Part shown: positions 26,175 through 64,000 of the stretch, piece by piece
How positions within the stretch are numbered: position 1 is the first letter of the stretch
How the letters are laid out: the number at the start of each line of letters is the position of its first letter
Assembly (NCBI GenBank): GCA_963674945.2
Contig: CAXXWQ010000002.1
Coordinates: 576,001-640,000 of the forward strand
Reading direction: 5' to 3'
Source: an uncultured Desulfosarcina sp.
GTDB taxonomy: Bacteria; Desulfobacterota; Desulfobacteria; Desulfobacterales; Desulfosarcinaceae
DNA length: 64,000 nt
Notes under the pieces: model-generated
The model's input: only the letters and a program-made list of their open reading frames with translations
The model's database searches: none
What the model was told of the DNA's origin: nothing
Position numbers and translations under genes: made by a program

Positions 26175-26397
26175 AGAATTCAGGAGCCAGGAGTAAGAAT
26201 CCAGAATGCGGATTCGCCTTCGGCTCAGCCGATTTGAAACAACCACAGAGGACACAGAGAGCACAGAGAACAATTTAGACCGTATTTCTCTGTGACCTCT
26301 TTGCTCTCTGTGGTGAAAGGATGTTATCTGAAAAAACAAGTTTCTTAAAATTAAAAGGAGCGAAGCGGCAACATCACGATTCTAACTTCTGACTCCT
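26175..26397 (+). repeat. Heptamer inverted element with nested 9-mer inverted element
   Basis: Five-heptamer left arm, motif L, ACCACAGAG GACACAGAG AGCACAGAG (26242) ... CTCTGTGAC CTCTTTGCT CTCTGTGGT (26314), motif R, right arm TTCTAAC TTCTGAC TCCT. Confidence 0.88.
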
Positions 26398-26470
26398 ACC
26401 TTCCGTATTTTTGTTATTCGGTGCTCGTAATCTGGAATTTTACATCGACTCCGTGAATTCCCAAGCGATC

Positions 26471-28330
26471 TCAAATATCGGTCTCGGCAACTTGCTTCTT
26501 GTCGTTTACATTCAGTGTCGCATTGCCCTGGATCCGGGCCTGGCGAATACCCTGGTCCGTCAGAAAAACACGAATCGGTTCCGGGATATCCAGCGTGGTG
26601 AACAGCCGCTGCTGCCCGGTTTGGGTTTTCACAAGGATACCGGCAACCGAAATGGTGGTGTTGTACTCGGATGGGCGTTTCGCTCCGTACCAGTAAGGAT
26701 TCAGGGTATACTCCATGCCCACAAAACCCATCAATTGCTTGATGATATCCACCGGACCGGCATCTGCATCGATCTGGAGAATTTGGAGTCCCGTCTGACG
26801 AATGGCTTTGATGGCGTCGCCGTAAAGGTCTCCGAAATCGATGAGAATTTCATTTCCTGAGCCAAAGGACAGCAGGTTGGAAAGGGCCTGGACCTGTATC
26901 CCGGCGTAGGGAAAGCTGATGCTGATGTTCGGTGAATAGGTGAACCCCATGATCCGTGAAAACGATGCGACAAATGTCTTTTGGTCACTGCCGTCGATAC
27001 GATCCACCTGAATTCGTTGTGGTGCTGCGTACTCCGGTTGTGTTGGCTGCTCACCACCGGTGAGAATATCCTTGATGAGGATGTCGTTTTGGTCCAGATA
27101 GCGCACGATGGCGCCATGGGTCTGCTGGGCAACGGACCCGATCGGTGTAATACAGGTGTGGCGTATGCTGCTGCCATCCGAGGCGGGTTTGCTGCTGATC
27201 CACTTGGCGCTCACCTGGATGGAGACACCCTGTTCTTCGAAGGCCAGCCGATCCGGGGTGCCTTTGCCGGATGCGGAGGACAATACCGCCTCCATCACTT
27301 CCGTGTACGAACCATCTTCCGGCACCTTCACAAACTGAACATCTTCCCTGAAGGAGCCGATTTCAGAGAGGTCTACATCCATGATCCGGTCTTTGGATGT
27401 CAAGATGATTTTGGATCCGTTCTCCATGTCGATCATGGGATATTGCGAAAGATCCAATTCGAAATCCTCTCCCTGCCTCGTTGGAAGAAACAGGGTCCCT
27501 TTCCTGATCAGCCGACCACCGATGGCGGCCGCCGTTTTCATTGCCGAGGCTTCGAGAGGGTTCCTCGGCTCCGAATCGGTTTCGGTCCACTGCCTTGCAG
27601 GTGGTGCCGCCGGAGCGGGGCGCGAAGCGGTCGTCTCTTCTCCCTGGGATTCAGATGGAGCCTTTTCGTCCACGATATTGCCGTCTTCATCGAAGAGACT
27701 TTCGTACCAGTTTTTTTCCCGTATGGATGGGTCGGGCATGTGGACCTTCTGGCCGGCGTAGATGCGATTGATATCTTTGATATGGGGGTTGGCCGCCAAA
27801 AACAGCTTCACCCCCTGGTTGTACAAGTTGTCGCCGTATTTTCCACCGAACCGTTTGGAAATAAGGGTGGAAACGGTGTCACCTTTCTGAACGGTGTATT
27901 CAGTTGAATGCTTTTCGATTGTCTCTTTCGTACTGGAGATCATGACAAATGGAATGGAGACGATGCCCGTGTCCTGACCGGGGAGGTTGCCCGGCGCCAA
28001 TTTCTTGATGGGAATGTCCACCACTTGCCCGGGTCGAATCCGGTCGATATCTTTTACATGCGGGTTGAGACGTTCAAAAATGCCGAGAAATTCCCTGAAG
28101 TCCTCGTGGGCGATTTCGCCTTTTTGCCGAAAGATTTTCAACACCCAATCACCGGCCTCGACCCGGTACGGGTCGCACAGAATGTCCCAACCCCGGTCGT
28201 ACCGGACCACGTAGTTTTTGTAGAGCATGGCGCCATTGACAACGACGGCGCCAAGCAAAATGGCAAGGATCGGGAAAAGGAAAAAAAGAGTTCGGATGAG
28301 TCGCGGATGGAAAGAATTGGGAAAAATCAT
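26471..28330 (-). CDS. LysM-domain exported protein
   Basis: N-terminal hydrophobic segment and two LysM-like repeats (YRVEAGD...LNPHVKDIDRIRPGQ; YTVQKGDTVS...ANPHIKDINRIYAGQ); start ATG 28330 overlaps the thrC stop. Confidence 0.82.
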   Translation of the reverse strand: MIFPNSFHPRLIRTLFFLFPILAILLGAVVVNGAMLYKNYVVRYDRGWDILCDPYRVEAGDWVLKIFRQKGEIAHEDFREFLGIFERLNPHVKDIDRIRPGQVVDIPIKKLAPGNLPGQDTGIVSIPFVMISSTKETIEKHSTEYTVQKGDTVSTLISKRFGGKYGDNLYNQGVKLFLAANPHIKDINRIYAGQKVHMPDPSIREKNWYESLFDEDGNIVDEKAPSESQGEETTASRPAPAAPPARQWTETDSEPRNPLEASAMKTAAAIGGRLIRKGTLFLPTRQGEDFELDLSQYPMIDMENGSKIILTSKDRIMDVDLSEIGSFREDVQFVKVPEDGSYTEVMEAVLSSASGKGTPDRLAFEEQGVSIQVSAKWISSKPASDGSSIRHTCITPIGSVAQQTHGAIVRYLDQNDILIKDILTGGEQPTQPEYAAPQRIQVDRIDGSDQKTFVASFSRIMGFTYSPNISISFPYAGIQVQALSNLLSFGSGNEILIDFGDLYGDAIKAIRQTGLQILQIDADAGPVDIIKQLMGFVGMEYTLNPYWYGAKRPSEYNTTISVAGILVKTQTGQQRLFTTLDIPEPIRVFLTDQGIRQARIQGNATLNVNDKKQVAETDI

Positions 28331-29832
28331 TTTTTTCTCTTTAGCTTTAGGTCCGATGCGATCTCGCTGCAAACCGCTTCAACAAATTTTGAAAAATCTT
28401 CGGGATTTAGTGGCCTGCCCGGCTCCGGTACCCGTTCTAACTGTTCGGGGCGTACCAGTTTGGGAAGATTGATCAGCTGCGGGTCGGGGCGAACGGCAAA
28501 TTCATCGGGAAAGTCATTTTGAAAGTACATGTCCTGGAAACCCGAGAACTTGAGGGCATGGGCCGTGGAGTCCACGATGGCCGTTTCGCTTGGGGACACG
28601 AAACCTTTTTCCACGGCCGAATGCAGTCCGGCCAAAGACTCGCCGCCGTGGGTACATGCGATGTGGCCGTTTCGATTCGCCGTCAACTGCCAGTCCATGA
28701 TCGCCTGTTCGACCACCTCGACGAAGAAAACGCGCTGGCACCCGGCCGTCTGGTTGTATTGATCCACCAGATGCATCACACGGGGCATGGAAACCGGGTT
28801 GCCGATCATGGCGGCCTGGGCAACACTGGGTTTGACGGTCATGGGTGTAAAACGCCGCTGCGCCGAATCCGGCTCCTCATAGTATCGGACCACCGGGTTG
28901 GCATGAACGGATTGTACACCCAATATTTTGGGCAACGTGTCGATAACGCCGACATCGAAGAATTTAAGGAAGCCGTTCATGACGGCGGTGATGTTGCCCG
29001 CGTTGCCGATGGGGACCACCACCACCTTGTCATTCATTTCATACTCGAACTCCTGCGCGATTTCGTAGGAGTAAGACTCCTGACCCAATATCCGCCATGC
29101 GTTTTTCGAGTTGAGCAGTGCCACGTTGTACTCGTCGGACAGGCGTTCGACCACCTTCATGCAATCGTCGAATACGCCGGGAATTTCAAACACGTCTGCA
29201 CCGCTGCCCAGCGGTTGGGAGAGCTGCTGGGGGGTCACCTTTTTATGGGGCAGCAGCACCGCCGATGCGATGTGGGGTTTCAGGTACGCGGCATACAGCG
29301 CCGCCGCGGCACTGGTGTCTCCGGTGGAGGCGCAAATGGAGAGCACCCGGTCGATTACACCCCGTTGGATGAGAAAATGGATATAGCTCAAGGCACTGGC
29401 CATCCCACGATCCTTGAAGGATGCACTGGGATTCTGTCCGTCGTTTTTGAAAAAGAACCGGATGCCCGCCTTTTTTGCAAGACGTGCGTTGGCTTCCACC
29501 ACGGGCGTATGGCCTTCGCCCAGGTAAATGATGGATTCCAAGGGGATTACCGGACCGATGAATTCGTGATACCGGTAGATCCCCTTCAATGCCGGGATCT
29601 TCAACATGCGGCGATAATCGAAGATCTGTCGCCACATCTTGCCATCGATGGCCTTTAACCGGTCGAATTGTGTATCGTGGATCAAAAGTACCTGGCCGCA
29701 GTCCGGGCAGGTGTACAACAAGGACTCGATACCATGCTCGGTGCCGCACCCCAGACATCGATAGATCTGCTTTCCACCGGGTTCGGGAATCAGGTACGGT
29801 TGCACCTTTTCGGGAAATTGGTCGATTCTCAC
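28327..29832 (-). CDS. thrC: Threonine synthase
   Basis: N-terminal CxxC...Cxx[19 protein letters not shown] (PLP lysine), [20 protein letters not shown]. Confidence 0.9.
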
Positions 29833-31103
29833 GGGACGATTTTCTCCATATTTTCCATATAGGGCCTAAGCGCCTTCGGGATGATCACGCTGCCGTCTTC
29901 CTGTTGGTTGTTCTCCAACAGTGCCGCGAGGGTCCGGCCGACGGCCAGCCCGCTGCCGTTTAAGGTGTGGACCAGACGCGTGCCCTTTTTCCCCTTCTCC
30001 TTACACCGGATATTGGCGCGGCGGGCCTGGAAATCTTCGAAGTTGCTGCAAGAGGAGATCTCCCGGTACACTCCCTGGGACGGCATCCATACCTCGATGT
30101 CGTAGGTTTTTGCGGCGGAGAATCCCAGATCCCCCGTGCACAAGGTGATAATCCGATAGGGAAGTTCCAGGCGTCGAAGAACGGCCTGTGCATTGTCCAG
30201 AAGGGTTTCCAGCTCATCGTAGGATGTCTCCGGGCGGGTGAACTTGACCAGCTCCACCTTATTGAATTGGTGTTGCCGGATCAGGCCCCGGGTGTCCTTT
30301 CCATAGCTGCCGGCCTCGGACCGGAAACAAGGGGTATACGCCGTATATTTGATGGGCAGTTGGGATGCGTCCAGAATTTCCGCCTGGTAGATGTTGGTCA
30401 CGGGTACTTCCGCCGTGGGAATGAGAAAATAGTCCAGTCCTTCCAGTTTGAACAGGTCCTCTTCGAATTTGGGAAGCTGGCCCGTACCGGTCATGGTTTT
30501 TCGATTGACGATGAAAGGTGGCAACACCTCTGTGTATCCATGTTCACCGGTGTGCAGATCCAGCATGAAGTTGATCAGCGCACGTTCCAGCCGAGCTCCC
30601 AATCCCAGGTAGAGGGGAAACCGTGCACCGGCGATTTTGGCGGCACGGGCAAAATCCAGAATGCCCAGACGTTCGCCGATGGTCCAGTGGGGCAGGGGGG
30701 GGGCATCGAATGTTGTTGGCGTGCCGACGGTTTTCACCACGGGATTATCCGTTTCGTCCTTTCCCACCGGTACGGTCTCATGGGGAATGTTGGGCATGGC
30801 CATGACCATTTCATCGATTGCCGATTCGCTTTCCGTCAGGGATGTTTCCAAGTCCTTTATGGTCGTGGACACCTCCCGCATGTTCGCGATGATGGACGCT
30901 GCGTTTTCTCCGGCACGCTTCATTTCGGCCACCTGTTCGGATACACGGTTGCGTTTTTGCCGGAGCGCCTCTATCTCGGAAAGCAATTCCTTGCGCCTTG
31001 CATCCCGGGCTTGAAATGCTTCCCAATCAAAGGCCGTGCCACGGTTTTTCATGGCGGTTTTGACGAGTTCCAAATTTTCTCTGATGAGCTTGATTTCCAG
31101 CAT
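29829..31103 (-). CDS. serS: Seryl-tRNA synthetase
   Basis: [61 protein letters not shown]; start set at ATG 31103. Confidence 0.98.
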
Positions 31104-32027: not shown

Positions 32028-32055
32028 ACCGGTTTCTGCAAGATCATGAAACGCG

Positions 32056-32084: not shown

Positions 32085-32113
32085 GGTGTTGCCAAGCCGT
32101 GCATTCCAATGAA

Positions 32114-32344
32114 AAATTCCAAATCACTAAACAACAGAAGTCAGAATGGCGATGTTGTCGCTGCGCTCCATCGTTTTTTTTCACATCGGCTGAGCCGAAG
32201 GCGAACCCAAATTCTGGATTCTGGCCCCTGACGCCTGGATACTTTTTCTAATTTGTGATTTGGAATTTGTGTATTGGGATTTCTTCTTCAATGATGGAGC
32301 GAAGCGACAGCATCGCCATTCCGGCTCCTGACGCCTGGATTCTC
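32114..32344. repeat. Nested heptamer elements
   Basis: AAATTCC AAATCAC ... GTGATTT GGAATTT encloses a reverse-oriented empty element (GTCGCTGCGCTCC ... GAGCCGAAGGCGAA); an extra motif R plus right arm follows at 32296-32344. Confidence 0.82.
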
Positions 32345-32488: not shown

Positions 32489-33133
32489 ATGAAATACCAG
32501 CGTCTGAGAAATCAAATGGTCACCAATCAGATCATCGCACGTGGGATCAACGATCCACACGTGCTGTCGGCCATGAGAACGGTACCGCGGCATCTGTTTG
32601 TCAGTGAGGCAATGATGGATCAAGCCTATGGGGATTTTCCCCTGCCCATCGGCGAACAGCAGACGATCTCCCAACCATACATCGTCGCGGAGATGACACA
32701 GGCGCTTCAGGTGACACCGGAAGATCGGGTATTGGAGATCGGCACCGGTTCCGGTTATCAGGCGGCGATCCTCGCCCAAATCGCCTTTCGGGTCTACACG
32801 GTCGAACGCATTTATTCGCTCTACGCCAGAAGCCGAAAATTGTTCGATCAGCTTCGTTACCACAACATCGTCACGCGCTATTCCGACGGCACCACCGGCT
32901 GGCAGGAACACAGTCCCTACGACGCCATTATCGTAACCGCAGGGGCACCCGAGATCCCTTCGGTTCTGGTAAACCAGTTGGCCATGGGCGGACGACTCGT
33001 GATTCCGGTGGGCGATCATCACAGCCAGGACCTGGTCAAGCTGTATCGTGACGAGAAGGGGATCCACCGGACCAATCTGGGGGGGTGCCGCTTCGTGAAG
33101 TTAATAGGCGAACATGGTTGGGATGCACCATAG
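32489..33133 (+). CDS. pcm: Protein-L-isoaspartate O-methyltransferase
   Basis: VPRHLFV, QTISQPYIVA, VLEIGTGSGYQAA, PYDAIIVTA, GGRLVIPVG; start set at ATG 32489. Confidence 0.96.
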   Translation: MKYQRLRNQMVTNQIIARGINDPHVLSAMRTVPRHLFVSEAMMDQAYGDFPLPIGEQQTISQPYIVAEMTQALQVTPEDRVLEIGTGSGYQAAILAQIAFRVYTVERIYSLYARSRKLFDQLRYHNIVTRYSDGTTGWQEHSPYDAIIVTAGAPEIPSVLVNQLAMGGRLVIPVGDHHSQDLVKLYRDEKGIHRTNLGGCRFVKLIGEHGWDAP

Positions 33134-33287
33134 TTGACGGCTTCGTAAAAAGTCCGATATCTGCGTTACGCTTCACCCCTCGTCACTGCGACGTATCATT
33201 AATACGCCTCATTCCTCGGGGTTCGCAAGCCTTGATCTCGAACTTTTTACGAAGCCGTCCGAAACCCGACTTCTTACGAGTTCATCA
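33134..33287. mobile_element. MITE-like palindromic element (second family)
   Basis: Perfect 18-bp inverted repeat GACGGCTTCGTAAAAAGT (33136-33153) / ACTTTTTACGAAGCCGTC (33242-33259), plus a second degenerate right end GACTTCTTACGAGTTCATCA. Confidence 0.75.
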
Positions 33288-33293
33288 TAGTTC

Positions 33294-33436
33294 GTGTCCA
33301 TCCAGAAATGGTAGATCATGGCGCAGGCCAAGGCCGCAGAGACGTTGAAACCGGAGGCGTAGCAGCGCTACGTTGAGGATTTCGACGGAGCGAGAACGCC
33401 GGCATGGGCCATGAGATGCCGTTTCTGGATGGACAC
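33294..33436. mobile_element. MITE-like element, copy 2
   Basis: Terminal inverted repeats GTGTCCATCCAGAAA / TTTCTGGATGGACAC; closely similar to 6670-6816. Confidence 0.78.
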
Positions 33437-33451
33437 TCGTTAGGACACGAT

Positions 33452-34102: not shown

Positions 34103-34348
34103 AGAATCCAGGAGTCAGAATTCAGAATACAGAAGTTGGCCCCGCCTTCGGCGCAGCCGAAAAGAATGTAACCACAGAGGACGCAAAAGAGCACAGAGAA
34201 AGAATCAAATTGCAGTTCTCTGTGGCCTCTGAATAAAGCATTACCTGAAAAGGTAGGCATCTTTACATTAGAAGGAGCGCAACGAAAAAATCGTCGTTCT
34301 GATTTCTGCTGTTCCGTAATTCGTTCCTTATTCAACGTTCGATGTTGA
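34103..34348 (+). repeat. Heptamer element with nested 9-mer element (degenerate right half)
   Basis: Five-heptamer left arm, CGCCTTCGGCGCA, ACCACAGAG GACGCAAAA GAGCACAGAG ... TTCTCTGTGG, GGAGCGCAACGA, then TTCAACG TTCGATG TTGA. Confidence 0.8.
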
Positions 34349-39727: not shown

Positions 39728-39916
39728 CAATGCGTTCGGGCGAGATGATCGTAAGAAAAATGAGCTGAAAAAGAATCAAGACGTCAGGGAGGCAACACCT
39801 AACAAAATTCCAAATCACAAAATAGAAAGAGAATTCAGGAGTCAGAAGTCAGAATCCAGGAGTTGGATTCGCCTTCGGCTCAATCGCCAAACAAAGCTGT
39901 AAATTCAGAATGTTGG

Positions 39917-40048
39917 GTGGAATAACCACCGGCATAAAAATTTCAAGACTTGATTGTATGGCAAAAAACTCATCAATTTGTTCTGGTTGTGCATCGCTAT
40001 AGTGAATCATTCCCTAAACATGAGATTTATGGGCTGACCTCACAATTA
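39917..40048 (+). pseudogene. Four-helix-bundle gene, 5' fragment
   Basis: ...FQDLIVWQKTHQFVLVVHRYSESFPKHEIYGLTSQL, then joined directly to motif R; 5' end degenerate. Confidence 0.85.
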
Positions 40049-40226
40049 TGAAACGAAGCGACAACATAGCCATTCTGAATTCTGACTCCTGGATTCTGGC
40101 TTCTGTAATTTTGGAATTTGGATATTGGTATTTTTCTTCTTCGAATAGCTCTTTCTAATGTTCGACGTTCGATTTTCAGCGTTCATTTTGTGCTTGACGG
40201 TTGGACTTTGTCGAGCTTTTCATCCT

Positions 40227-40303
40227 TAAGCTCTAAGCTCTAAGCTCTAAGCTCTAAGCTCTAAGCTCTAAGCTCTAAGCTCTAAGCTCTAAGCTCTAAG
40301 CTC
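40227..40303. repeat. (TAAGCTC)11 tandem array
   Basis: 77 bp, 11 perfect units counted. Confidence 0.97.
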
Positions 40304-40402
40304 TTGGATTCTGTATTCTGTAGTTTTACCATGACATAATCTACAATTACTGTTATAATTGCAAAAATTCTTGATTAATCTAAAATCCAAATCACATACC
40401 CT

Positions 40403-43152: not shown

Positions 43153-43300
43153 AGAATTCAGGAGACGAAAATCAGAATCCAGGAGTCAGAAGTCAGAATC
43201 CAGAATGTGGATTCGCCTTCGGCTCAATCGATTTAAATAACGATGGAGCGAAGCGACAACCTATCTATTCTGGCTTCTGACTCCTGGATTCTGTATTCTG
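43153..43300 (+). repeat. Empty heptamer inverted-repeat element
   Basis: Left arm, TCGCCTTCGGCTCAATCG-ATTTAAATAA-CGATGGAGCGAAGCGA, right arm TTCTGGC TTCTGAC TCCTGGA TTCTGTA TTCTG. Confidence 0.92.
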
Positions 43301-43306
43301 GTTTTT

Positions 43307-44374: not shown

Positions 44375-44479
44375 CAAAAAATTCCAATAAACAAATTCCA
44401 AATCACAAATAAATTCCAATGACCAAATAACAAAACAGCAGAATTCAGGAGTCAGAAGTCAGAATCCAGAAGGTGGATT

Positions 44480-44605
44480 AGTTGTATTCAAACCGGGTGC
44501 TTTGCACCCGGAATCACCCCGAACGATGAAAGCACTAACGTGCTTTTGGATATCCGGCCCATGGCCGAATATCCAAGTCACCCGCTTTGCGGGTGATCGT
44601 TGACG
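44480..44605. repeat. 126-bp multi-hairpin insert, copy 1
   Basis: Four hairpins; identical to 55463-55588; absent from the other element copies. Confidence 0.85.
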
Positions 44606-44653
44606 CGCCTTTGGCTCAATCATAAATAAAGAGCTGGAAATCCAGAATGTAGA

Positions 44654-45017
44654 ATGAAACGAGCACCGGCAAAAATTTTCAGGACTTGATTGTATGGCAA
44701 AAAGCGCATCAATTTGTTTTGGCTGTGTATCGCTATAGTGAATCATTCCCTAAGAATGAGATTTATGGGCTGACTTCACAATTGAGAAGATCCGCTGTTT
44801 CAATTCCAGCGAACATCGCAGAAGGATTCAAGAAAAAGACCAGGCCAGACAAGGCAAGGTTTTTAAATATAGCACAGGGCTCCCTTGAAGAGACACGGTA
44901 CTATCTATTTTGGCAGCAGATCTCGGTTATGGTGAAAATGTTGAATTGGCAAACCAACTTCGGGAGATCAGTAAATTGCTGGAAGGTTACCTTTCTTCCA
45001 TTTTGCATTCTGTATAG
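44654..45017 (+). pseudogene. Four-helix-bundle protein (23S rRNA IVS/Avd-like), two frameshifts
   Basis: LIVWQKAH...FPKNEIYGLTSQLRRSAVSIPANIAEG...FLNIAQGSLEETRYY; A5 instead of A6 at 44671 and a 1-nt deletion near 44905. Confidence 0.9.
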
Positions 45018-45060
45018 AGGCAACGGTAATATTCAAATTGAAGGAGCGAAGCGACACCTT

Positions 45061-45249
45061 CTCCTGGCTCCTGGCTCCTGGCTCCTGGCTCCTGGCTCCT
45101 GGCTCCTGGCTCCTGGCTCCTGGCTCCTGGCTCCTGGCTCCTGGCTCCTGGCTCCTGGCTCCTGGCTCCTGGCTCCTGGCTCCTGGCTCCTGGCTCCTGG
45201 CTCCTGGCTCCTGGCTCCTGGCTCCTGGCTCCTGGCTCCTGGCTCCTGG
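45061..45249. repeat. (CTCCTGG)27 tandem array
   Basis: 189 bp, 27 perfect units. Confidence 0.97.
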
Positions 45250-45319
45250 ATTCTGACTCCTGGATTCTGAATTCTACAGTTTTGTGGTTAAAAAAAGTTA
45301 CCTGAAAACACAATCAATC

Positions 45320-47401
45320 ATGGAAAATAATAACAGTCCCACTCCCATCATCGGCACCTTTTCACGGGGGCTTGTTACTAGACGGCACCTCGGCGCCGCA
45401 TTGGGCGGCCGGGTCCTGCGATTGGGAAGGCATAACGACGGTACTGCCCTGTCTGCCGTTGTTGGCTGGGGACGAAAGGACAACACGAATCGGGCAAGGA
45501 GTTTCGCAGCCAACGCCGGTTTGCCGTACATCTGTATCGAAGACGGGTTTATTCGATCCATCGGCCTGGGTGTGAACAATGCACAGCCATTCGGCTTCAT
45601 CGTCGATACATCCGCCATCTACTACGATGCGACCCGGCCATCGGACCTGGAAATCCTCATTCAAAGCAACGGCGAGGGGGGGGGGGACCTTGATCGCGCA
45701 CGCAGGCTCATGGCCCGCATCGTGAAGGAACAGATCTACAAGTACAACCACGTCTGGGACAGCGTTCGTCTGCCACAGACCCGTCGACCACGAATCCTCC
45801 TCATTGACCAGACCCGGGGTGACCTCTCCGTCACGTATGGGATGGCCGGCGCCGACAGCTTCCGGCAAATGCTGGATTCTGCCAGAAAGCGATATCCGGA
45901 TGGCGCCTTTTTCGTCAAGACGCATCCGGACGTCATTGCGGGAAAGAAAAAGGGGTATCTGCTCGATGACCTGCCGGCCGATGTCATGCGAATCGGAGAT
46001 GACTGTAACCCCTACGCCCTGCTCCATCAGGTTGACCACGTCTATACGGTGTCCAGCCAGATGGGATTCGAAGCGCTCCTGGCGGGAAAACCGGTGACAT
46101 GTTTCGGAATGCCCTTCTACGCCGGATGGGGGGTGACGGAGGATCGGGTTCACTGTGCGCGCAGGGGCGTCACCCGTTCCATGGAAGCGCTTTTTGACGC
46201 CGCCTATCTGAAGTACGTTCGATACGTGGATCCGTTGACAGGGGATCCTTGCGAGCTGGAGCAGATTCTCGACAGAATCGTTTTTCACAAACAGGTGGCA
46301 CTGGAAAACAAAGGCAAGGTGTTTTGTTTCGGGTTTCGTTTCTGGAAAAGGGGGATCATCAACCGGTTTCTGGATGCATCCGATGCCGATGTCCGGTTTA
46401 CGAGGCGTCCGGAGACGGCCGAACGGACAGGACTCGATGGCGAGAGTCGCATCGCCGTCTGGGGCCTTCGCAATGATACCGGTGTCATGAAACTGGCCAC
46501 GCGCCATGGGATTCGGGTGGAGCGGATCGAGGACGGGTTTATCCGATCCGTCGGTTTGGGATCCGATTTCGCTCCTCCCTCGTCCCTTATCGTGGATCGT
46601 CGGGGCATCTATTTCGATCCCCGTCGTCCCAGCGAGTTGGAGAACCTTCTCAACACGGTGGTCCTCGATGGAAACGCCAGAAAAGCGGCCCGTCGATTGC
46701 GGCGATCCATCATTGCATTGGGGATGAGCAAATACAACACGGGCTGCAATGAACCGCTGCACGTGGACGCGCAACCGGACCAACCGGTCGTCCTCGTTCC
46801 CGGGCAGGTGGAAGACGATGCCTCCATCCAGGCGGGCTGCGTGGATATTCGGACCAACATCGGCCTCCTCAAAGCGGTCCGCCGCCAATCTCCCGATGCA
46901 TACATCATTTACAAACCCCATCCCGATGTCCTGGCGGGCAATCGTCGCGGGTTCATTCCCAAGGATCGTGCGCTTTCCCATTGTGACAGAATTGTGACAG
47001 ACCGGAATATCATCCAATGTCTGGATCGTGTTGACCAGGTCCATACCCTGACCTCCCTGACGGGGTTCGAGGCGCTGTTACGGGATAAGGCCGTTTTCAC
47101 TTACGGGCGTCCCTTCTATTCCGGATGGGGGCTCACCGTTGACCGTCATCCCTCACCGCGCCGCACACGTAGTTTGACCATAGATGAACTGGTTTATTGC
47201 AGTCTGATTCTTTATCCGCGCTACTACGATTGGGATGCCCGCTGTTTCGTTCAGGCGGAGGATGTCGTCGAAAAACTTCGCAAACAACTGCTCAGCCGCG
47301 ACCTTTCCATCAAACCATCCGTGCACCGGCATCTTCGCCGCAAGGCCCTGTTTCTTATGGAGGATCTGCGCGAGGCAATGGGGACGATACGGATCAAATG
47401 A
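45320..47401 (+). CDS. kpsC: Capsule biosynthesis beta-Kdo transferase KpsC
   Basis: Two homologous domains: GWGRK, IEDGFIRS (twice), KYN (twice), KTHPD/KPHPD, GFEALL, PFY.GWG; start set at ATG 45320. Confidence 0.95.
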   Translation: MENNNSPTPIIGTFSRGLVTRRHLGAALGGRVLRLGRHNDGTALSAVVGWGRKDNTNRARSFAANAGLPYICIEDGFIRSIGLGVNNAQPFGFIVDTSAIYYDATRPSDLEILIQSNGEGGGDLDRARRLMARIVKEQIYKYNHVWDSVRLPQTRRPRILLIDQTRGDLSVTYGMAGADSFRQMLDSARKRYPDGAFFVKTHPDVIAGKKKGYLLDDLPADVMRIGDDCNPYALLHQVDHVYTVSSQMGFEALLAGKPVTCFGMPFYAGWGVTEDRVHCARRGVTRSMEALFDAAYLKYVRYVDPLTGDPCELEQILDRIVFHKQVALENKGKVFCFGFRFWKRGIINRFLDASDADVRFTRRPETAERTGLDGESRIAVWGLRNDTGVMKLATRHGIRVERIEDGFIRSVGLGSDFAPPSSLIVDRRGIYFDPRRPSELENLLNTVVLDGNARKAARRLRRSIIALGMSKYNTGCNEPLHVDAQPDQPVVLVPGQVEDDASIQAGCVDIRTNIGLLKAVRRQSPDAYIIYKPHPDVLAGNRRGFIPKDRALSHCDRIVTDRNIIQCLDRVDQVHTLTSLTGFEALLRDKAVFTYGRPFYSGWGLTVDRHPSPRRTRSLTIDELVYCSLILYPRYYDWDARCFVQAEDVVEKLRKQLLSRDLSIKPSVHRHLRRKALFLMEDLREAMGTIRIK

Positions 47402-47406
47402 TATAT

Positions 47407-47623
47407 AAATCTCAAATCACAAGCAACAAATAGCAAACAAACGCCAAATTTCAATGACCAAACAACAAACGGATCACATAACTAAATATGAAATTTTCAT
47501 CTTACCGATCGGGTTGTTTGGAATTTGAAAAATTGTTTATTGGGATTTGTTTGTGATTTGGAATTTGGTTATTGTGATTTCTTTATAGCGGAGCGCAGCG
47601 ACAGCATAGCCATCCTGGCTCCT
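47407..47623. repeat. CAAAT-family heptamer inverted element plus orphan motif R
   Basis: AAATCTC AAATCAC AAGCAAC AAATAGC AAACAAA ... TTTGTTT GTGATTT GGAATTT GGTTATT GTGATTT, then GGAGCGCAGCGAC...CCTGGCTCCT. Confidence 0.85.
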
Positions 47624-51467: not shown

Positions 51468-51839
51468 AGAATACAGGAGTCAGGAGTCAGAATCCAGAAG
51501 TTGGATTTGCCTTCGGCTCAATCATAAAAATGAGTTGGGGATCCATACGTTAGAATGAAACGACCACCGGCAAAAAATTTTCAAGACTTGATTGTGTGGC
51601 AAAAAGCGCATCAATTTGTTTTGGCTGTGTATCGCTATGGTAAAAATGTTGAATTGACAAATCAACTCCAGGATGTCAGCAAATTTTTGGAAGGTGACCT
51701 TTCTTCCATTTTGCAAACAGAAAATAGGTAATGCTAATATTTATATTAATAGATGGAGCGAAGCGACAACATCGCCATTCTGACTCCTGACTCCTGACTT
51801 CTGGATTCTGAATTCTGTATTTTTGTGATTTGGAATTTA
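51468..51839 (+). mobile_element. Heptamer element carrying an internally deleted four-helix-bundle gene
   Basis: Five-heptamer left arm, motif L, gene, motif R, right arm TTCTGAC TCCTGAC TCCTGAC TTCTGGA TTCTGAA TTCTGTA. Confidence 0.85.
51555..51731 (+). pseudogene. Four-helix-bundle gene with in-frame internal deletion (58 aa)
   Basis: MKRPPAKNFQDLIVWQKAHQFVLAVYRY fused to GKNVELTNQLQDVSKFLEGDLSSILQTENR*. Confidence 0.88.
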
Positions 51840-52934: not shown

Positions 52935-53174
52935 AGAATTCAGGAGTCAGGAGTCAGAATCCAGAAGTCGGATCCGCCTTCGGCGCATCCGAAAAAAGGT
53001 AACCAAAGAGGACACAAAAGAGTACAGAGAACGAATCAAATTGTAGTTCTCTGTGTACTCTACTGCTCTCTGTAGTGAATAACGCATTGCCTGAAAAGGC
53101 AGGTGTCTTTACATTAGAAAGAGCGAAGCGATAACAACGCCATTCTGACTACTGACTCCTGGATTCTGGCTTCT
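52935..53174 (+). repeat. Heptamer element with nested 9-mer element
   Basis: Five-heptamer arm, CGCCTTCGGCGCA, ACCAAAGAG GACACAAAA GAGTACAGAG ... CTCTGTGTA...CTCTCTGTAG, GAGCGAAGCGA, right arm. Confidence 0.88.
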
Positions 53175-54153: not shown

Positions 54154-54238
54154 GGAATTCAGTAGTCAGGAGTCAGAATCCAGAATGTGGATTTGCCTTC
54201 GGCTCATTCGATCAATAAACAGCAAGAAACCACAGAGA
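54154..54238 (+). repeat. Left half of heptamer element
   Basis: GGAATTC AGTAGTC AGGAGTC AGAATCC AGAAT, GGATTTGCCTTCGGCTCA, one ACCACAGAG unit; no right arm before gmd. Confidence 0.8.
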
Positions 54239-55359: not shown

Positions 55360-55462
55360 GGTGGCAGAATCAGAAGGTCGAACAATTAAATACAAATTCC
55401 AATATCCAAATAACAAAACAGCAGAATTCAGGAGTCAGAAGTCAGAATCCAGAAGGTGGATT

Positions 55463-55588
55463 AGTTGTATTCAAACCGGGTGCTTTGCACCCGGAATCAC
55501 CCCGAACGATGAAAGCACTAACGTGCTTTTGGATATCCGGCCCATGGCCGAATATCCAAGTCACCCGCTTTGCGGGTGATCGTTGACG
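55463..55588. repeat. 126-bp multi-hairpin insert, copy 2
   Basis: Identical to 44480-44605. Confidence 0.85.
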
Positions 55589-55636
55589 CTCCTTTGGCTC
55601 AATCATAAATAAAGAGCTGGAAATCCAGAATGTAGA

Positions 55637-56001
55637 ATGAAACGAGCACCGGCAAAAATTTTCAGGACTTGATTGTTTGGCAAAAAGCGCATCGATTCGT
55701 ATTAGGTATGTATTGCTATACTGAATCATTTCCTAAAAGTGAGATTTATGGTTTGACATCACAATTGAGAAGATCATCCGTATCCATTCCAGCTAATATT
55801 GCAGAAGGCTTTAAAAAAAAGACGGTGCCTGATAAGGCAAAGTTTATGAACATAGCGCAAGGTTCTCTTGAAGAGACACGGTACTATCTCATTTTGGCGG
55901 CGGATCTTGGTTATGGTGAAAATGTTGAATTGACGAAGCAACTTCGGGAGGTCAGTAAATTGTTGGAAGGTTACCTTTCTTCTATTTTGCATTCTGTATA
56001 G
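55637..56001 (+). CDS. Four-helix-bundle protein (23S rRNA IVS/Avd-like); ATG out of frame by one base
   Basis: Open from TTG 55669: IVWQKAH...EIYGLTSQLRRSSVSIPANIAEG...IAQGSLEETRYYLILAADLGY. ATG 55637 is disconnected by A5 versus A6 at 55654, so this may be a pseudogene. Confidence 0.8.
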
Positions 56002-56044
56002 AGGCAACGGTAATATTCAAATTGAAGGAGCGAAGCGACACCTT

Positions 56045-56324
56045 CTCCTGGCTCCTGGCTCCTGGCTCCTGGCTCCTGGCTCCTGGCTCCTGGCTCCTGG
56101 CTCCTGGCTCCTGGCTCCTGGCTCCTGGCTCCTGGCTCCTGGCTCCTGGCTCCTGGCTCCTGGCTCCTGGCTCCTGGCTCCTGGCTCCTGGCTCCTGGCT
56201 CCTGGCTCCTGGCTCCTGGCTCCTGGCTCCTGGCTCCTGGCTCCTGGCTCCTGGCTCCTGGCTCCTGGCTCCTGGCTCCTGGCTCCTGGCTCCTGGCTCC
56301 TGGCTCCTGGCTCCTGGCTCCTGG
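56045..56324. repeat. (CTCCTGG)40 tandem array
   Basis: 280 bp, 40 perfect units plus a partial unit. Confidence 0.97.
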
Positions 56325-56384
56325 CTCCTCTCGTTTGTCTTTCTTGTAGTGGAAAACCATTACTCGACAAGGTAAGGTTCAACT

Positions 56385-57548
56385 ATGCAAAAAAACAGCA
56401 AGATCTACGTCGCCGGCCACAGGGGGCTCGTGGGATCGGCACTCATGCGAACGCTTCAAGCGCAGGGATATGGTAATATCGTCACCCGCACCCATGCCGA
56501 ACTGGATTTATGCGATCAAGCCGCCGTTCGAGATTTTTTCCAACAGGAGCAACCGGAATATGTCTTCCTTGCCGCGGCCAAGGTCGGCGGCATCTGGGCG
56601 AACAACACCTTTCCGGCGGAATTCCTCTATCAGAATATCAGCATCCAGAGCAATGTCATCCATTTTGCGAAACAAACCGGAGTTCGTCGTCTCCTGTTTC
56701 TCGGCTCCTCCTGCATTTACCCCCGCGATTGTCCCCAGCCGATGAAGGAGTCGTACCTGTTGACCGGACCGCTGGAATCAACCAATCGGCCCTATGCGGT
56801 GGCGAAGATCGCCGGTATCGAGATGTGCTGGTCGTACAATCGGCAATATGGAACGAAATACCTGGCCGTGATGCCGACAAACCTTTACGGTCCCAACGAT
56901 AGCTATGATCTGACAAATTCCCATGTGCTGCCCGCATTGATACGAAAGATTCACCTGGCGAAGCTGGCGAAAAATGGGGATCTGGAGGGGATTCGACAAG
57001 ACAGGGACCGAAGAGGGGATATACCCGTAGACGTGTTGCAAACCATCGGCGTTTCCGAAGATCTCTCGGCTTCCATCTCCGATGATGTGAAACTCGTCGT
57101 GTGGGGCACCGGATCTCCAAAGAGAGAGTTTTTGTACAGCGACGATATGGCCAGGGCGAGCCTGTTTCTGATGTCCCTTCCCGACAAGGAATTTGACAAT
57201 CTGGTAAGGGCCGAAGCGCTTCCGCTGATCAACATCGGGTGTGGCTATGATCTGACGATCAGAAAACTGGCTGAAACGATCCAGGACGTGCTCGGTTTTT
57301 CCGGGGAAATCATCTGGGACAAGAACAAGCCGGATGGTACGCCCCAAAAGCTATTGGATGTCGGCAACCTCTTTTCCCTGGGATGGAAACCAACCGTAAA
57401 TCTCGAAGCGGGCATCGCGGCGGCGTATGAGGATTACCTGAACGAAAGAATTCAGGAGCCGGAAGTCGGAATCCGGAAATCGCGGGTTTTATCGCCACAG
57501 ACACACACAGACGCACACAGACGAAATAGAGCCGATTCCAATTTTTAG
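56385..57548 (+). CDS. fcl: GDP-L-fucose synthase
   Basis: IYVAGHRGLVGSA, AAAKVGGI, LGSSCIYP, YAVAK, PTNLYGP, SHVLPAL, VWGTG, KPDGTP; the last 33 aa come from repeat sequence. Confidence 0.96.
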   Translation: MQKNSKIYVAGHRGLVGSALMRTLQAQGYGNIVTRTHAELDLCDQAAVRDFFQQEQPEYVFLAAAKVGGIWANNTFPAEFLYQNISIQSNVIHFAKQTGVRRLLFLGSSCIYPRDCPQPMKESYLLTGPLESTNRPYAVAKIAGIEMCWSYNRQYGTKYLAVMPTNLYGPNDSYDLTNSHVLPALIRKIHLAKLAKNGDLEGIRQDRDRRGDIPVDVLQTIGVSEDLSASISDDVKLVVWGTGSPKREFLYSDDMARASLFLMSLPDKEFDNLVRAEALPLINIGCGYDLTIRKLAETIQDVLGFSGEIIWDKNKPDGTPQKLLDVGNLFSLGWKPTVNLEAGIAAAYEDYLNERIQEPEVGIRKSRVLSPQTHTDAHRRNRADSNF

Positions 57549-57718
57549 CTCATTACACATCACTCATTACTGATCACTGATTTTTCCTCCGCGTCTCAGC
57601 GTGCTCGAGCAAAGCGGGCGAGAAAAAGATCAGCGAAGCGACAACTTCGCCATTCTGACTCCTGGCTTCTGCAGTTGCAGTTCTCTGTGGTGAATAACGA
57701 ATTACCTGAAAAGGCAGG
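57447..57718 (+). repeat. Heptamer element with 10-mer and TCAT/TGAT-heptamer cargo
   Basis: AGAATTC AGGAGCC GGAAGTC GGAATCC GGAAA ... AGCGAAGCGACAAC...TTCTGAC TCCTGGC TTCTG, then a 9-mer-element right end. Confidence 0.78.
57492..57604 (+). repeat. 113-bp direct repeat, left copy
   Basis: Identical to 58375-58487. Confidence 0.95.
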
Positions 57719-57789: not shown

Positions 57790-58071
57790 ATGCAAAGAAT
57801 AAAAATTGATCAGGATATTAAGCCCTTGTCGGAAGTTAGGACCGGAATTGCAAACTTCATAAAACAAGTTCATGATACAAAACGCCCATTGGTCATTACA
57901 CAGCATGGAAAAGGCGTGGCCGTGCTAATCGATGTTCATGAATATGAAGCGATCCAAAATCGGCTTGAGCTTTTGACAGATATCCAGTTAGGGCTGAACC
58001 AGATTGAAAACGGACAAGGAATCGATCAAGAAAATGCAAAGCAGATGGTTATCCAGCGAGCCTTACAATGA
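57790..58071 (+). CDS. Phd/YefM-family antitoxin
   Basis: DIKPLSEVR...KRPLVITQHGKGVAVLIDVHEYE; overlaps the toxin start. Confidence 0.92.
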   Translation: MQRIKIDQDIKPLSEVRTGIANFIKQVHDTKRPLVITQHGKGVAVLIDVHEYEAIQNRLELLTDIQLGLNQIENGQGIDQENAKQMVIQRALQ

Positions 58072-58364
58072 AAATTGTATGGTCTCCTCTTGCGATAGAG
58101 CGGACTTCAGAAATCGCGGGTTTTATTGCCAGAGACAAACCATCCGCTGCAGAAGAATGGATCGATACCGTTTTTCTGAAGGTCGAACAGCTATTGGACT
58201 CACCTGAGATCGGTAGGATTGTGCCCGAAATAAACAACAAGCAGTTTCGAGAGATAATTTATGGTAACTATCGAATTATTTATCGTGTCGAAATAAAGCG
58301 GATTTCAATTCTTACGATCCAACATGGGAACCAGATATTACCAATAAAGGAAATCTTGACATAA
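58068..58364 (+). CDS. RelE/ParE-family toxin
   Basis: MKIVWSPLA...IAGFIARDKPSAA...PEIGRIVPE...REIIYGNYRIIYR...ILTIQHG. Confidence 0.92.
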   Translation: MKIVWSPLAIERTSEIAGFIARDKPSAAEEWIDTVFLKVEQLLDSPEIGRIVPEINNKQFREIIYGNYRIIYRVEIKRISILTIQHGNQILPIKEILT

Positions 58365-58374
58365 CAACATCTTT

Positions 58375-58487
58375 TCGCCACAGACACACACAGACGCACA
58401 CAGACGAAATAGAGCCGATTCCAATTTTTAGCTCATTACACATCACTCATTACTGATCACTGATTTTTCCTCCGCGTCTCAGCGTGC
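58375..58487 (+). repeat. 113-bp direct repeat, right copy
   Basis: Identical to 57492-57604. Confidence 0.95.
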
Positions 58488-58549
58488 AAAATTATATCAT
58501 AATTGTAATTATGCATTGCATTGTTACAAATTCATTGTATGATAGCACC

Positions 58550-59731
58550 ATGAAAACCAAATTCGTACCACGATTGCTTCGGATCCCCAATTATTCTTTT
58601 TTTCTTTTTGGTCCACGCGGTGTAGGGAAAACAACGGTTTTACGTAAGGTTTTGCCTGATGCCATTTTTTTTGATTTGCTTGAATCTTCATTGTATCTTG
58701 AATTATCACAAAATCCCGAAAACATAGAGGCCCTTATCGGAGATGCCGATAAGGGCGACTGGATCGTCATTGATGAAATTCAAAAAGTTCCTACCCTTTT
58801 GGATGAGGTTCACCGTTTAATTGAAAATAGAGACTGGAATTTTGCCCTATGCGGGTCATCAGCCAGAAAACTTCGGCAAGGTGGTGTGAATCTTTTGGCA
58901 GGTCGTGCCGTTACTCGAAACCTTGACGCATTTTCATTCAAGGAATTGGGCGACGACTTTGACTTAGATTTTTCTTTGGAATGGGGTCTCCTTCCAATAG
59001 TCCAGACCCATCGAAGGAATCCTTCTGATTTTTTAAGCGCTTACGTAGATACCTATCTTAAGGAGGAAATCAAAGAAGAGGGGATTGTTCGCCGTTTACC
59101 GCCCTTTTTACGATTTTTAAATATTGCCGGACAACTTAATGGTCAAATAGTAAATGCACAAAATATTGCCAGAGAGGCAAGCATACCCAGGAGTACGGTT
59201 GATGTTTATTTTTCCATTTTAGAAGATACGCTGCTGGGACACTTTCTGCCGGCCTATCGACCGGGTTTAAAAGTGCGAGAGCAGGCGCATCCAAAATTTT
59301 TTTGGTTCGATTCCGGGGTTTCTAGAGCGGCCTCAGGCCTTCTATTTGATCCGGTAGACCGCATTTGGAAAGGATCAAGCCTGGAGACACTGATTCTGCA
59401 CGAACTGAAAGTATACAACCATACGCAAGAAAAACATCGGGACATTTATTATTACAGAACAGGCAGTGGTGTTGAAATTGATTTTATAATTGAAACGCAA
59501 AAACGTCAGCAAACAAACCACCCACATGTGGTATGCATGGAAGTCAAACTGGCGGAAAAATGGGATCGACGGTGGGAGAAACCGATGCGTTCATTCAATG
59601 AAAATAAAAAAATTCACGTAGAACGGATGATTGGTGTTTATACGGGGTCCAGAAGTTATCATTTTGATGGCATAGATGTCCTGCCGGTTGATGCTTTCCT
59701 GAAGCAACTGCATTCAGGTAAAGTGTTTTAG
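58550..59731 (+). CDS. AAA+ ATPase with DUF4143-like / PD-(D/E)xK-like C-terminus
   Basis: GPRGVGKTT, IDEIQK, GSSARKL, LLAGRA, PKFFWFDSG, YYR...EIDF...EVK; start set at ATG 58550. Confidence 0.88.
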   Translation: MKTKFVPRLLRIPNYSFFLFGPRGVGKTTVLRKVLPDAIFFDLLESSLYLELSQNPENIEALIGDADKGDWIVIDEIQKVPTLLDEVHRLIENRDWNFALCGSSARKLRQGGVNLLAGRAVTRNLDAFSFKELGDDFDLDFSLEWGLLPIVQTHRRNPSDFLSAYVDTYLKEEIKEEGIVRRLPPFLRFLNIAGQLNGQIVNAQNIAREASIPRSTVDVYFSILEDTLLGHFLPAYRPGLKVREQAHPKFFWFDSGVSRAASGLLFDPVDRIWKGSSLETLILHELKVYNHTQEKHRDIYYYRTGSGVEIDFIIETQKRQQTNHPHVVCMEVKLAEKWDRRWEKPMRSFNENKKIHVERMIGVYTGSRSYHFDGIDVLPVDAFLKQLHSGKVF

Positions 59732-59742
59732 TTTGGTTCCTT

Positions 59743-60108
59743 ATTCGACGTTCAATGTTGGGCGTTCGATGTTCGACGTTCATTCTTTGTTGGCTCCCTG
59801 TTCCCTGCTCCGAGATTTTTCCTATTTAGTGGTTGAAATCACACCCCCATCCAAGATATAGTGCCTGCATTCTAATGTAATCTGAGTGTTTCCCATGTTG
59901 CATTCGTTTAAATGTGTTGCAAAAATAATGAGTTATTTAAATACTATCCGTCCAATTCCATATTCCCGGAAATCACTTTTCTTAAGGCATAGATCCTTGT
60001 TTGCATTTTGACTATTGGGATTTGGAATTTATTTGTAATTTGGTGCTTGTGATTTGGAATTTTATTTATCGATTTGTTCCTAATTCGATGTTGAATGTTC
60101 GACGTTTA
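59743..60108. repeat. Stacked right arms of GAAC- and CAAAT-family heptamer repeats
   Basis: TTCGACG TTCAATG TTGGGCG TTCGATG TTCGACG TTCA (59744-59782); GGGATTT GGAATTT ... GTGATTT GGAATTT (about 60017-60062); TTCGATG TTGAATG TTCGACG (60084). Confidence 0.8.
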
Positions 60109-60165
60109 TTGGTAATTGGCGCCTGTTTTCTGACATCTTATAACTATTTTTTGAGATCTAAATTC

Positions 60166-63147: not shown

Positions 63148-63171
63148 ATGACACAGAGAGCATAGAGAAAG

Positions 63172-63630
63172 ATGACTTCCAAATACGAAAATGAAATAAA
63201 AAAAATCGAAGAATCCGGCCTGTTTGACCCCGTTTGGTATCAAGCCGAATACCCCGATACACAATTTCTCAACATGACCCCCATCGAACACTATTTATGG
63301 CTGGGTGCAACATTGGGGCGCAATCCCTCTCCGAAATTCGATGTCGCCTTTTATTTAAAATCCTATCCGGAGGCAGCCAATTCCGGCATTAATCCATTGC
63401 TCTATTTCATTGAAAAGGGAAGGGCAGCAGGACACGAAACGGTTTCACCTGATGAAAAAGAAGAGAAAGAGTCGACTTATAAATCAGTTGATCTCCTTAT
63501 TGAGGAAGAAGAATTAAGGGAAGAAAATGAATTATTATTGCTCCAACTTCATCAGGTCCAGGAGGAACTGGAAACCTATTATCTGAAGTATCAGGAGCTG
63601 AAGAATCGTGTGGAAGAGAAGGAAGGGTGA
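63172..63630 (+). CDS. Small protein with YPD/YPE repeats and coiled-coil tail
   Basis: SGLFDPVWYQAEYPD...PIEHY...GRNPSPKFD..FYL..YP; tail ENELLLLQLHQVQEELETYY. Confidence 0.8.
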   Translation: MTSKYENEIKKIEESGLFDPVWYQAEYPDTQFLNMTPIEHYLWLGATLGRNPSPKFDVAFYLKSYPEAANSGINPLLYFIEKGRAAGHETVSPDEKEEKESTYKSVDLLIEEEELREENELLLLQLHQVQEELETYYLKYQELKNRVEEKEG

Positions 63631-63637
63631 AGAAAGA

Positions 63638-64000
63638 GAACGTCGAACATCGAACGTCCAACATCGAATATCGGATGATGTGGGTGCAAGCATACTGGGA
63701 GAGAATCCAGGAGTCAGGAGTCAGAATTCAGAATGTGGATTCACCTTCGGCTCAATCATAAAAATGAGTTGGGGATCCATACGTTAGAGTGAAACGACCA
63801 CCGGCAAAAAATTTTCAAGACTTGATTGTGTGGCAAAAAGCGCATCAATTTGTTTTGGCTGTGTATCGCTATAGTGAATCGTTCCCTAAGAATGAGATTT
63901 ATGGGTTGACCTCACAATTGAGAAGATCCGCTGTTTCAATCCCAGCGGACATTACAGAAGGCTTCAAGAAAAAGACGAAGCCTGACAAGGCAAGGTTTTT
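63638..64000 (+). mobile_element. Heptamer element, left part, running off the window
   Basis: GAACGTC GAACATC GAACGTC CAACATC GAATATC arm, five-heptamer arm at 63702, motif L, gene start. Confidence 0.85.
63789..64000 (+). CDS. Four-helix-bundle protein, open to the window end
   Basis: GTG start, KRPPAKNFQDLIVWQKAHQFVLAVYRYSESFPKNEIYGLTSQLRRSAVSIPADITEGFKKKTKPDKARF; A6 keeps the frame. Confidence 0.85.
   Translation, partial: MKRPPAKNFQDLIVWQKAHQFVLAVYRYSESFPKNEIYGLTSQLRRSAVSIPADITEGFKKKTKPDKARF

Follow-up and report, generated by a model that had tools for sequence, protein, structure and literature searches.

Five-motif inverted arms around PF05635/TIGR02436 genes: a putative binding site for a likely pentameric four-helix-bundle protein

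Introduction

Why do short tandem arrays lying between the genes of an uncultured Desulfosarcina so often hold five units? The question is raised by a stretch of 64,000 nucleotides (nt; contig CAXXWQ010000002.1, positions 576001–640000, hereafter the window), which contains the dcw cluster and a kps capsule/sugar locus, and in which inverted heptamer arms sit in the intergenic spaces between protein genes of the dcw, capsule and sugar operons. Some of these arm pairs enclose genes of the PF05635/TIGR02436 family, a relative of the pentameric protein Avd. A preliminary description of this DNA proposed that each subunit of such a pentamer reads one heptamer, with the left arm as the cognate site. 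Two elements of that proposal hold, namely the solved pentamers of the family and a five-motif mode, which we find across many phyla, whereas the inference from the window copies, the site confined to the left arm, the heptamer as the motif and RNA as the substrate are not supported. On balance, we lean towards the view that five motifs form a putative binding site of a likely pentameric PF05635 protein, with one core per subunit.

Arms and genes of the window

All ten plus-strand and both minus-strand five-unit arms listed in the preliminary description were recovered where it placed them, with the single adjustment that the arm given at 13691 begins at 13690. In each, five AG[AG]A[GT][TC]C-like heptamers follow one another in phase, and the fifth has a free 3' end; GG in units 3–5 makes the arm at 57447 degenerate, and those at 54154 and 32243 each have one core change in 2–3 units. 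The three extra units at 43153 are also real (43153–43173, in phase, one of them degenerate, followed by a normal arm from 43174), as are the five units of a GAAC arm at 63638 and of an octamer arm at 4967. Right arms do vary widely, but the actual span is 2 to 41 units rather than about three to more than 40. A two-unit left arm exists in the window as well (25206), and the GAAC family is broader, with 36 arrays of 3–8 units and a lenient-count mode of 6. The genome contains 120 AG-heptamer arrays and its shuffled counterpart none, and because independent contigs cover the 26175 arm with every letter identical, this arm is not an assembly artefact.

Five arm pairs of the window enclose TIGR02436/PF05635 genes or their remains, and all five genes are altered: two are frameshifted, one is internally deleted, one survives as a remnant, and in the open copy at 63789 the otherwise invariant Asn of NIAEG is replaced by Asp. 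Family scores are high (122 and 125 bits for PF05635 against a cut-off of 33.8; 115.9 for TIGR02436 against 24). The predicted fold has four helices with a predicted local distance difference test score (pLDDT) of 96, and its template-modelling (TM) score is 0.87 to 2GSC, 0.78 to 2RLD and 0.75 to Avd. Both 2GSC (match E 1.8e-20) and 2RLD contain five chains, and the available part of PMC4990558 states a homopentamer for the protein family. The family is thus pentameric as far as its solved members go, and by homology the window protein is likely a pentamer too. The Avd family PF22296 itself stays below its cut-off (22.6 and 25.3 bits against 40), and no reverse transcriptase was found among the 48 window proteins in an NCBIfam scan, in which template and variable repeats were not specifically searched. 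Among proteins matching the query, one of 2474 aa (P0050) gave 19 matches to query residues 35–82 and no PF05635 match, and is probably a repetitive artefact.

Five motifs across taxa

The loci of our survey came from relatives, from the phylum, from GTDB, from collections of viral and metagenome sequences, and from another 25 genomes. Partial genes were dropped, leaving 337 full genes, or 329 once dereplication at 90% had removed eight redundant ones. A sequence-blind periodicity search that pairs inverted arms found matched arms at 250 of the 329, with a period of 7 in 205 loci, 8 in 31, 9 in nine, 6 in four and 10 in one, and with 201 distinct consensus units. This first finder, which used a fixed mismatch penalty, undercounted or missed six of the 12 window arms; its pairing still defines the 250 loci, and arm lengths were re-estimated by a leave-one-out profile checked with planted arrays. 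The estimator recovers planted lengths within about 1–2 nt, and its median for planted arrays of 28 nt is 28.5, which the real data do not resemble. We count as five motifs a length of four periods plus 2–4 nt.

Counted in this way, exactly five motifs occur in 231 of 500 arms and five or more in 416. Five is the mode on each side (107 of 250 5' arms and 124 of 250 3' arms), in every data source, and in all 500 draws that took a single locus from each of the 110 clusters formed at 60% identity. Below four periods plus 2 nt the distribution falls off sharply, and its upper tail is long. Heptamer arms concentrate at 30–34 nt and octamer arms at 34–40 nt; bootstrapped over protein clusters, the length mode is 31.5 nt (31–32) for 7-mers and 38.5 nt (35.5–42.5) for 8-mers, and lengths of 30–33 nt account for 45% of 7-mer arms but 4% of 8-mer arms within the 22–50 nt range. 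Because arm length increases from 7-mers to 8-mers, it is the motif count that is conserved rather than the length. Repeat number thus equals subunit number irrespective of spacer length as a mode and apparent minimum, and not as a fixed value. Among the flanks of unpaired genes (158), 77 have no array and the remaining 81 peak at five (32 of 81); if all 77 are taken as having at most three units, five is still the commonest count (263 vs 116 of 658).

The survey also changes what the motif and the site would be. In 7-mers, the match to consensus is 0.80–0.89 as far as the second base of unit five and drops in the rest of that unit, with a similar and noisier profile in 8-mers; therefore, a typical arm consists of five short cores and four spacers, and arrays tend to begin and end on a core. 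The conserved unit is a 2–4-nt core (AG in 87, GG in 29 and GT in 28 of the 250 loci), which displaces the whole heptamer, or AG[A/G]A, as the motif proposed to be read. Likewise, 5' and 3' arms do not differ (Wilcoxon p=0.41), so we dropped the notion that the left arm alone is the cognate site. What the survey does uphold is the five-count itself, which is kept across unrelated units while arm length scales with period. At a single locus from a viral collection (L493), one arm has four full units flanked by C/G, and the second arm has five units.

A neutrally evolving repeat consensus is expected to turn over at the mutation rate. At protein identities of 55–75%, four-fold sites are saturated (0.28–0.29), yet units are at most one base apart in 15–43% of pairs, compared with 1.4% of pairs at 35–45% identity. 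This persistence past silent-site saturation, contrary to neutral turnover, argues for selection on the unit tied to the protein. In the clades of the solved five-chain structures, both arms have five motifs in L141, L317 and L183 (2GSC-like) and in L283, L257 and L250 (2RLD-like); when very close relatives were sought for 2GSC and 2RLD, those found were related at clade level only.

A second repeat-flanked family

A useful control is provided by genes of the GxxExxY family (PF13366, PD-(D/E)XK; loci L333–L381), which have arms of their own, with units of 8–10 nt in either orientation. Arms are paired at 12 of 49 of these genes, mostly measure 24–32 nt, and contain three cores in 17 of 24 cases. 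Because this unrelated repeat-flanked family has three, the number of motifs is family-specific. A three-copy model of the GxxExxY protein places the chains head-to-tail with a score of 0.63, against 0.26 for the best control, and its contacts fit a ring or an open chain; in a benchmark, 20 of 30 solved pairs and one of 23 single chains attained that score mark. The three-copy runs agree in at least 95% of contacts with a pLDDT of at least 87, and no solved relative of the protein was found (best E 0.019). Within the window, gene-less GxxExxY-type arms nest inside heptamer elements (26245–26312 and 57496–57523).

Copies within this genome

The preliminary description called for a genome-wide histogram of units per arm, and it contrasted fixed left arms with variable right arms. 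Our census, which is anchor-based and does not list the two long expansions of 31 and 41 units, covers 59 left and 71 right arms, of which 35 and 41, respectively, have five units; both sides peak at five, and the contrast does not extend beyond the window. There it arises because twin cassettes, 92% identical, carry both long right arms. Letter preferences are specific to the position of a unit in the arm (mutual information 1.58 vs a permutation maximum of 0.415), anchors are 43–50 nt apart in 36 of 47 paired elements, and the gene-less copies, which are most of the copies in this genome, are one element of ~130 nt. Because they are copies of one element, most of them gene-less, and because the window genes are decaying, the five units of the window arms are inherited. 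The histogram therefore does not show a link to the pentamer, and it is the survey that bears on this idea.

The arms, genes and gene remains of the window are as follows, with right arms given on the strand on which they read.

4967..5006, plus strand: five-unit octamer arm in the gap between two pieces of purH, with neither a partner arm nor a gene seen
13569..13596, plus strand: right arm, four units, of the murF–mraY element
13656..13690, minus strand: five-unit left arm of a gene-less element that lies between murF and mraY
26175..26209, plus strand: left arm, five AG-core heptamers, then the GCCTTCGGC mini-hairpin; gene-less element
26377..26397, minus strand: right arm, three units
32209..32243, minus strand: left arm, five partly degenerate units
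34103..34137, plus strand: left arm, five units
39830..39864, plus strand: left arm, five units, nested within other heptamer arm types
39914..40050, plus strand: remnant of a TIGR02436 four-helix-bundle gene
40070..40104, minus strand: right arm, five units
43153..43208, plus strand: left arm, five units (43174–43208) and three extra in-phase units
43265..43299, minus strand: right arm, five units; hairpin fold of 43174–43303, z -8.7
44440..44474, plus strand: left arm, five units, twin cassette 1
44654..45017, plus strand: TIGR02436 gene with two frameshifts
45059..45275, minus strand: right arm with an expansion to 31 units (on the plus strand, 29 near-identical CTCCTGG)
51468..51502, plus strand: left arm, five units
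51555..51730, plus strand: TIGR02436 gene with a large internal deletion
51775..51823, minus strand: right arm, six to seven units
52935..52969, plus strand: left arm, five units, gene-less
53140..53174, minus strand: right arm, five units
54154..54188, plus strand: five-unit left arm; between it and gmd no right arm was seen
55423..55457, plus strand: left arm of twin cassette 2, with five units, lying between gmd and fcl
55637..56001, plus strand: TIGR02436/PF05635 gene, frameshift just past the ATG; the long open frame is predicted to fold like 2GSC
56043..56329, minus strand: right arm expanded to 41 units
57447..57481, plus strand: degenerate five-unit left arm that encloses a 10-mer arm of the GxxExxY type
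57643..57670, minus strand: right arm, three to four units
63638..63672, plus strand: GAAC-type heptamer arm, five units
63702..63736, plus strand: left arm, five units
63789..64000, plus strand: TIGR02436 gene, open from a GTG past the window end; five-unit right arm beyond

One could hold that five is neutral, with slippage and gene conversion maintaining a steady-state size and the count inherited from the founder of the family. This fully accounts for the copies within this genome, with their position-specific units and narrow anchor spacing, and the long homogeneous expansions show slippage at work. Over about 200 units and two periods, however, the same count recurs with a sharp lower edge, the GxxExxY family has three, and units outlast silent-site saturation, so that we give this explanation little credence.

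The copies are short, multi-copy, gene-less and have inverted ends, the character of the miniature transposable elements with inverted repeats (MITEs). The murF–mraY element is present at two of 25 loci in the genus, with one further locus unresolved and one holding a different element; it is an insertion, patchy at an orthologous junction. The empty murF–mraY sites are too divergent to place the element ends. Among the joints listed (15 of 144) there is no excision joint, and no mobility machinery, including a transposase, was found in the murF–mraY comparison or at the listed joints. In the relative G018 (L463), an element arm is read as the end of murF, with the TGA inside the fifth unit.

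Several further features of the window concern the surroundings of these elements, whose gene neighbours are sugar, capsule and cell-wall genes. The twin cassettes share a short-hairpin insert of ~150 nt that splits the GCCTTCGGC motif region (44475–44640 and 55458–55625). Different arm types (AAATTCC-like, AG, GAAC and TAAGCTC x11) are nested or stacked at shared junctions of the capsule locus, as if elements insert into each other (39790–40320, 44379–44440, 47380–47620 and 63638–63740). Two further palindromic MITE-like families occur, one at 6644–6820 and 33290–33440 and the other at 33130–33290, and a relative of the second occupies the murF–mraY junction in L473. purH is split over two open reading frames (ORFs) on the minus strand (3697–4947 and 5166–5852), and the five-unit octamer arm lies in the gap. 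In addition, a direct repeat of ~110 nt (57497–57609 and 58380–58486) flanks a phd–parE toxin–antitoxin pair (57790–58364) in an arm-bounded region.

Strand, pairing and substrate

The cores of both arms lie on the strand reading toward the gene, so that an mRNA would have cores at its 5' arm only. With the cores of the 3' arm antisense, RNA as the substrate is not borne out; the 5' arm in nascent RNA, at a median of 25 nt from the gene start, may still be a target, as a prediction. The median distance between arm and gene is 24–25 nt, too little to accommodate an enzyme gene. G exceeds C on the toward-gene strand in 208 of 250 5' arms. Some clades depart from this, with 37 of 250 5' arms C-rich and 19 of 500 arms (for example at L314, L310, L426 and L258) without G on the toward-gene strand; strand polarity is thus not universal.

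The richness in G suggests another cause, as has been proposed for Xanthomonas and Nostoc heptamers: the arrays could be G-quadruplex formers, which need four G-tracts. Quadruplex formation in vitro and a four-unit mode are reported in the available part of PMC4692102, and the bias of the 5' arms points the same way. Yet GGG occurs in only 37 of 250 units, whose mode is five (38 of 74 arms), and the window units, which lack GGG, are unable to form a quadruplex. As a general cause it is ruled out by the 131 of 250 units that lack even GG and still peak at five (120 of 262 arms), and we regard the quadruplex as very unlikely to explain the arms at all.

A different possibility is that the arms are selected as a stem of RNA or single-stranded DNA of about three helical turns, as in the intervening sequences (IVS) of 23S rRNA that are cut by RNase III, five heptamers being simply that length. 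In the Coxiella IVS, as described in the available part of PMC4990558, RNase III cuts a terminal stem of 28 bp, and the S23p ORF is preceded by heptamer repeats. The window elements fold strongly (z -4.9 to -8.7 in four full-element folds, the lowest at 43174–43303), both arms have five units, and GxxExxY arms are of similar length. A stem, on the other hand, needs neither tandem periodicity nor a unit linked to the protein, and arm length moves with period from 31.5 to 38.5 nt. Fine pairing also appears not to be under selection: arm-to-arm identity is 0.839 against 0.841 with units shuffled (138 loci), and G.U-compatible differences are not enriched (112 vs 137). None of the 337 genes adjoins any of three 23S motifs, rRNA being often unassembled, and the window has no Rfam match and places its elements between protein genes rather than in a 23S rRNA helix. 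Predicted hairpins do give the elements a complementary terminal stem of the IVS type, without that fine pairing selection; each arm kept as a site on its own strand fits better than a tuned RNA stem, and we consider the stem an improbable basis for the count, though one to be taken seriously.

Alternatively, the mode of binding might be that of Avd: the pentamer would sit over a hairpin that has flipped-out bases, either the GCCTTCGGC/GCTTCGC motif or the arms when paired, leaving the repeats to serve another partner. According to the available parts of the sources (bioRxiv 10.1101/2023.10.23.563531; PMC6182149), all five protomers of Avd contact an 11-bp stem-loop capped by UNCG, equivalent residues of different protomers grip flipped-out bases, and about 30 nt are protected. 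The predicted fold matches that of Avd, and a TTCG-type mini-hairpin follows either type of arm in this genome. Across the survey, however, the mini-hairpin lies inside the arms at only nine of 250 loci, and such binding leaves the five-core mode and the linkage between unit and protein unexplained. It strikes us as a poor prospect.

Against a ring that reads five cores, several observations have to be set. The Avd precedent offered earlier holds for a pentamer that binds nucleic acid, but the known RNA site of Avd, in the sources just cited, is a stem-loop and no tandem repeat. A stable arm–arm hairpin would hide the cores in RNA. Matched arms are missing at 79 of the 329 genes, and the count is not fixed, since 84 of 500 arms have fewer than five motifs and 185 have more. 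Counting exact trinucleotides gives a mode of four in 200 of 200 draws. Short arms are under-detected: arrays of 17–21 nt went unnoticed in 49–58 of 70 simulations, and those of 31 nt in 21 of 70. Regressed crudely on period, length has a slope of 2.5 +/- 0.6, under the expected 4; the 8-mer class is small (31 loci, 18 clusters) and the 9-mer class (nine loci) is uninformative (bootstrap 27.5–54). At the other 12 of 18 loci with motifs of the 2GSC or 2RLD clades, the arms exceed five, fall short of it or lack a partner. No specificity residue was isolated when protein columns were compared with core or period by mutual information, the matches being inseparable from phylogeny. Finally, the published Xanthomonas arrays, in the available part of PMC4692102, have a reported four-unit mode.

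These Xanthomonas arrays deserve closer attention. Rehm et al. 2015 (PMC4692102, available part) report 186 arrays, 70 of them convergent pairs, with a mode of four full units, and read them as G-quadruplexes. Four full units plus a partial fifth would count as five under our rule. In that paper, a GGGAATC x4 array overlaps the start of XCC0516, listed as "conserved protein" (S2 Table A, row 15); XCC0516 is the gene of a solved pentamer. The pattern of the Xanthomonas type occurred in none of the 151 and none of the 261 genomes searched.

A working model and its relatives

With these points weighed, the model that we favour for the five motifs runs as follows. The arms form both inverted ends of a compact element with a PF05635/TIGR02436 four-helix-bundle gene at its centre, and each subunit of the ring would read one short motif of an arm in a sequence-specific manner, for which the linkage between unit and protein offers indirect support. 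The substrate would be single-stranded, because seven is no helical repeat of duplex DNA and clades use periods of 6–10. Both ends may be recognised on opposite strands, probably as DNA, given that the 3' cores are antisense and fine pairing is not selected. Five would then be a minimum imposed by the ring, with longer arms arising by slippage, and by analogy with Avd the ring may be an adaptor that recruits an enzyme encoded elsewhere.

A comparable arrangement is found in TRAP of Bacillus, a beta-rich ring of 11 subunits that binds one short purine core per subunit on a single strand, with n cores and n-1 spacers as here. TRAP is a ligand-gated regulator acting on RNA, whereas the present ring would be a helical pentamer with sites on both strands. 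MITEs and the repetitive extragenic palindromic (REP) and REPIN sequences that go with the RAYT transposase exist as short, gene-less palindromic copies alongside rarer gene-carrying copies with cognate end sequences. The present elements resemble them in being intergenic, patchy among relatives, and both gene-less and gene-carrying; they differ in that the cargo is no known nuclease or transposase, the ends are tandem arrays, and no target-site duplication is resolved.

The likeness to Avd of the Bordetella phage diversity-generating retroelement (DGR; 4DWL, 8UBx) lies in the fold (TM 0.75) and, as described in the available parts of the Avd sources, in the pentamer, the non-catalytic adaptor role and the equivalent nucleic-acid pockets on different protomers. 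Avd has one stem-loop beside a reverse transcriptase, while the putative site here is a tandem array at both ends. The S23p/PF05635 IVS of Coxiella, and by citation of Leptospira and Brucella, share the protein family, an ORF between complementary ends and heptamers before the ORF. In contrast to the 23S IVS, the present element lies between protein genes and has many gene-less copies, excision by RNase III being described for the IVS; the available part of PMC4990558 assigns the repeats no binding role. The Xanthomonas GGGAATC and Nostoc GGGGA(C/T)T heptamers of PMC4692102 are likewise intergenic, often in convergent pairs with a short spacer, and have a preferred copy number and a long tail. 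A four-helix-bundle or S23 protein is not mentioned in the searchable text of that paper; these arrays are probably gene-less copies of the present element type. A literature search, with limited coverage of subscription papers, found no proposal of binding by one repeat per subunit.

Significance

The excess of 7-nt repeats in bacteria is described as unexplained in the available part of PMC4692102. As a tentative and rather doubtful extension of our reading, these elements could be widespread minimal selfish elements in which an oligomer counts end motifs per subunit (five for PF05635, three for GxxExxY) using clade-specific codes, with gene-less copies behind much of the heptamer excess, including that of Xanthomonas and Nostoc, and with the IVS and the Avd of DGRs as derived forms. 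If the five-core reading is true, the family would give a likely origin for the role of Avd as a nucleic-acid adaptor and would supply many natural protein–repeat pairs, with about 200 units already seen. For PF05635, pentamers have been solved since 2006–2007 with no function assigned, and the five-core reading would, if true, supply one. If the ring does read five cores, the function of PF05635 and the heptamer excess would both be testable in one binding assay.

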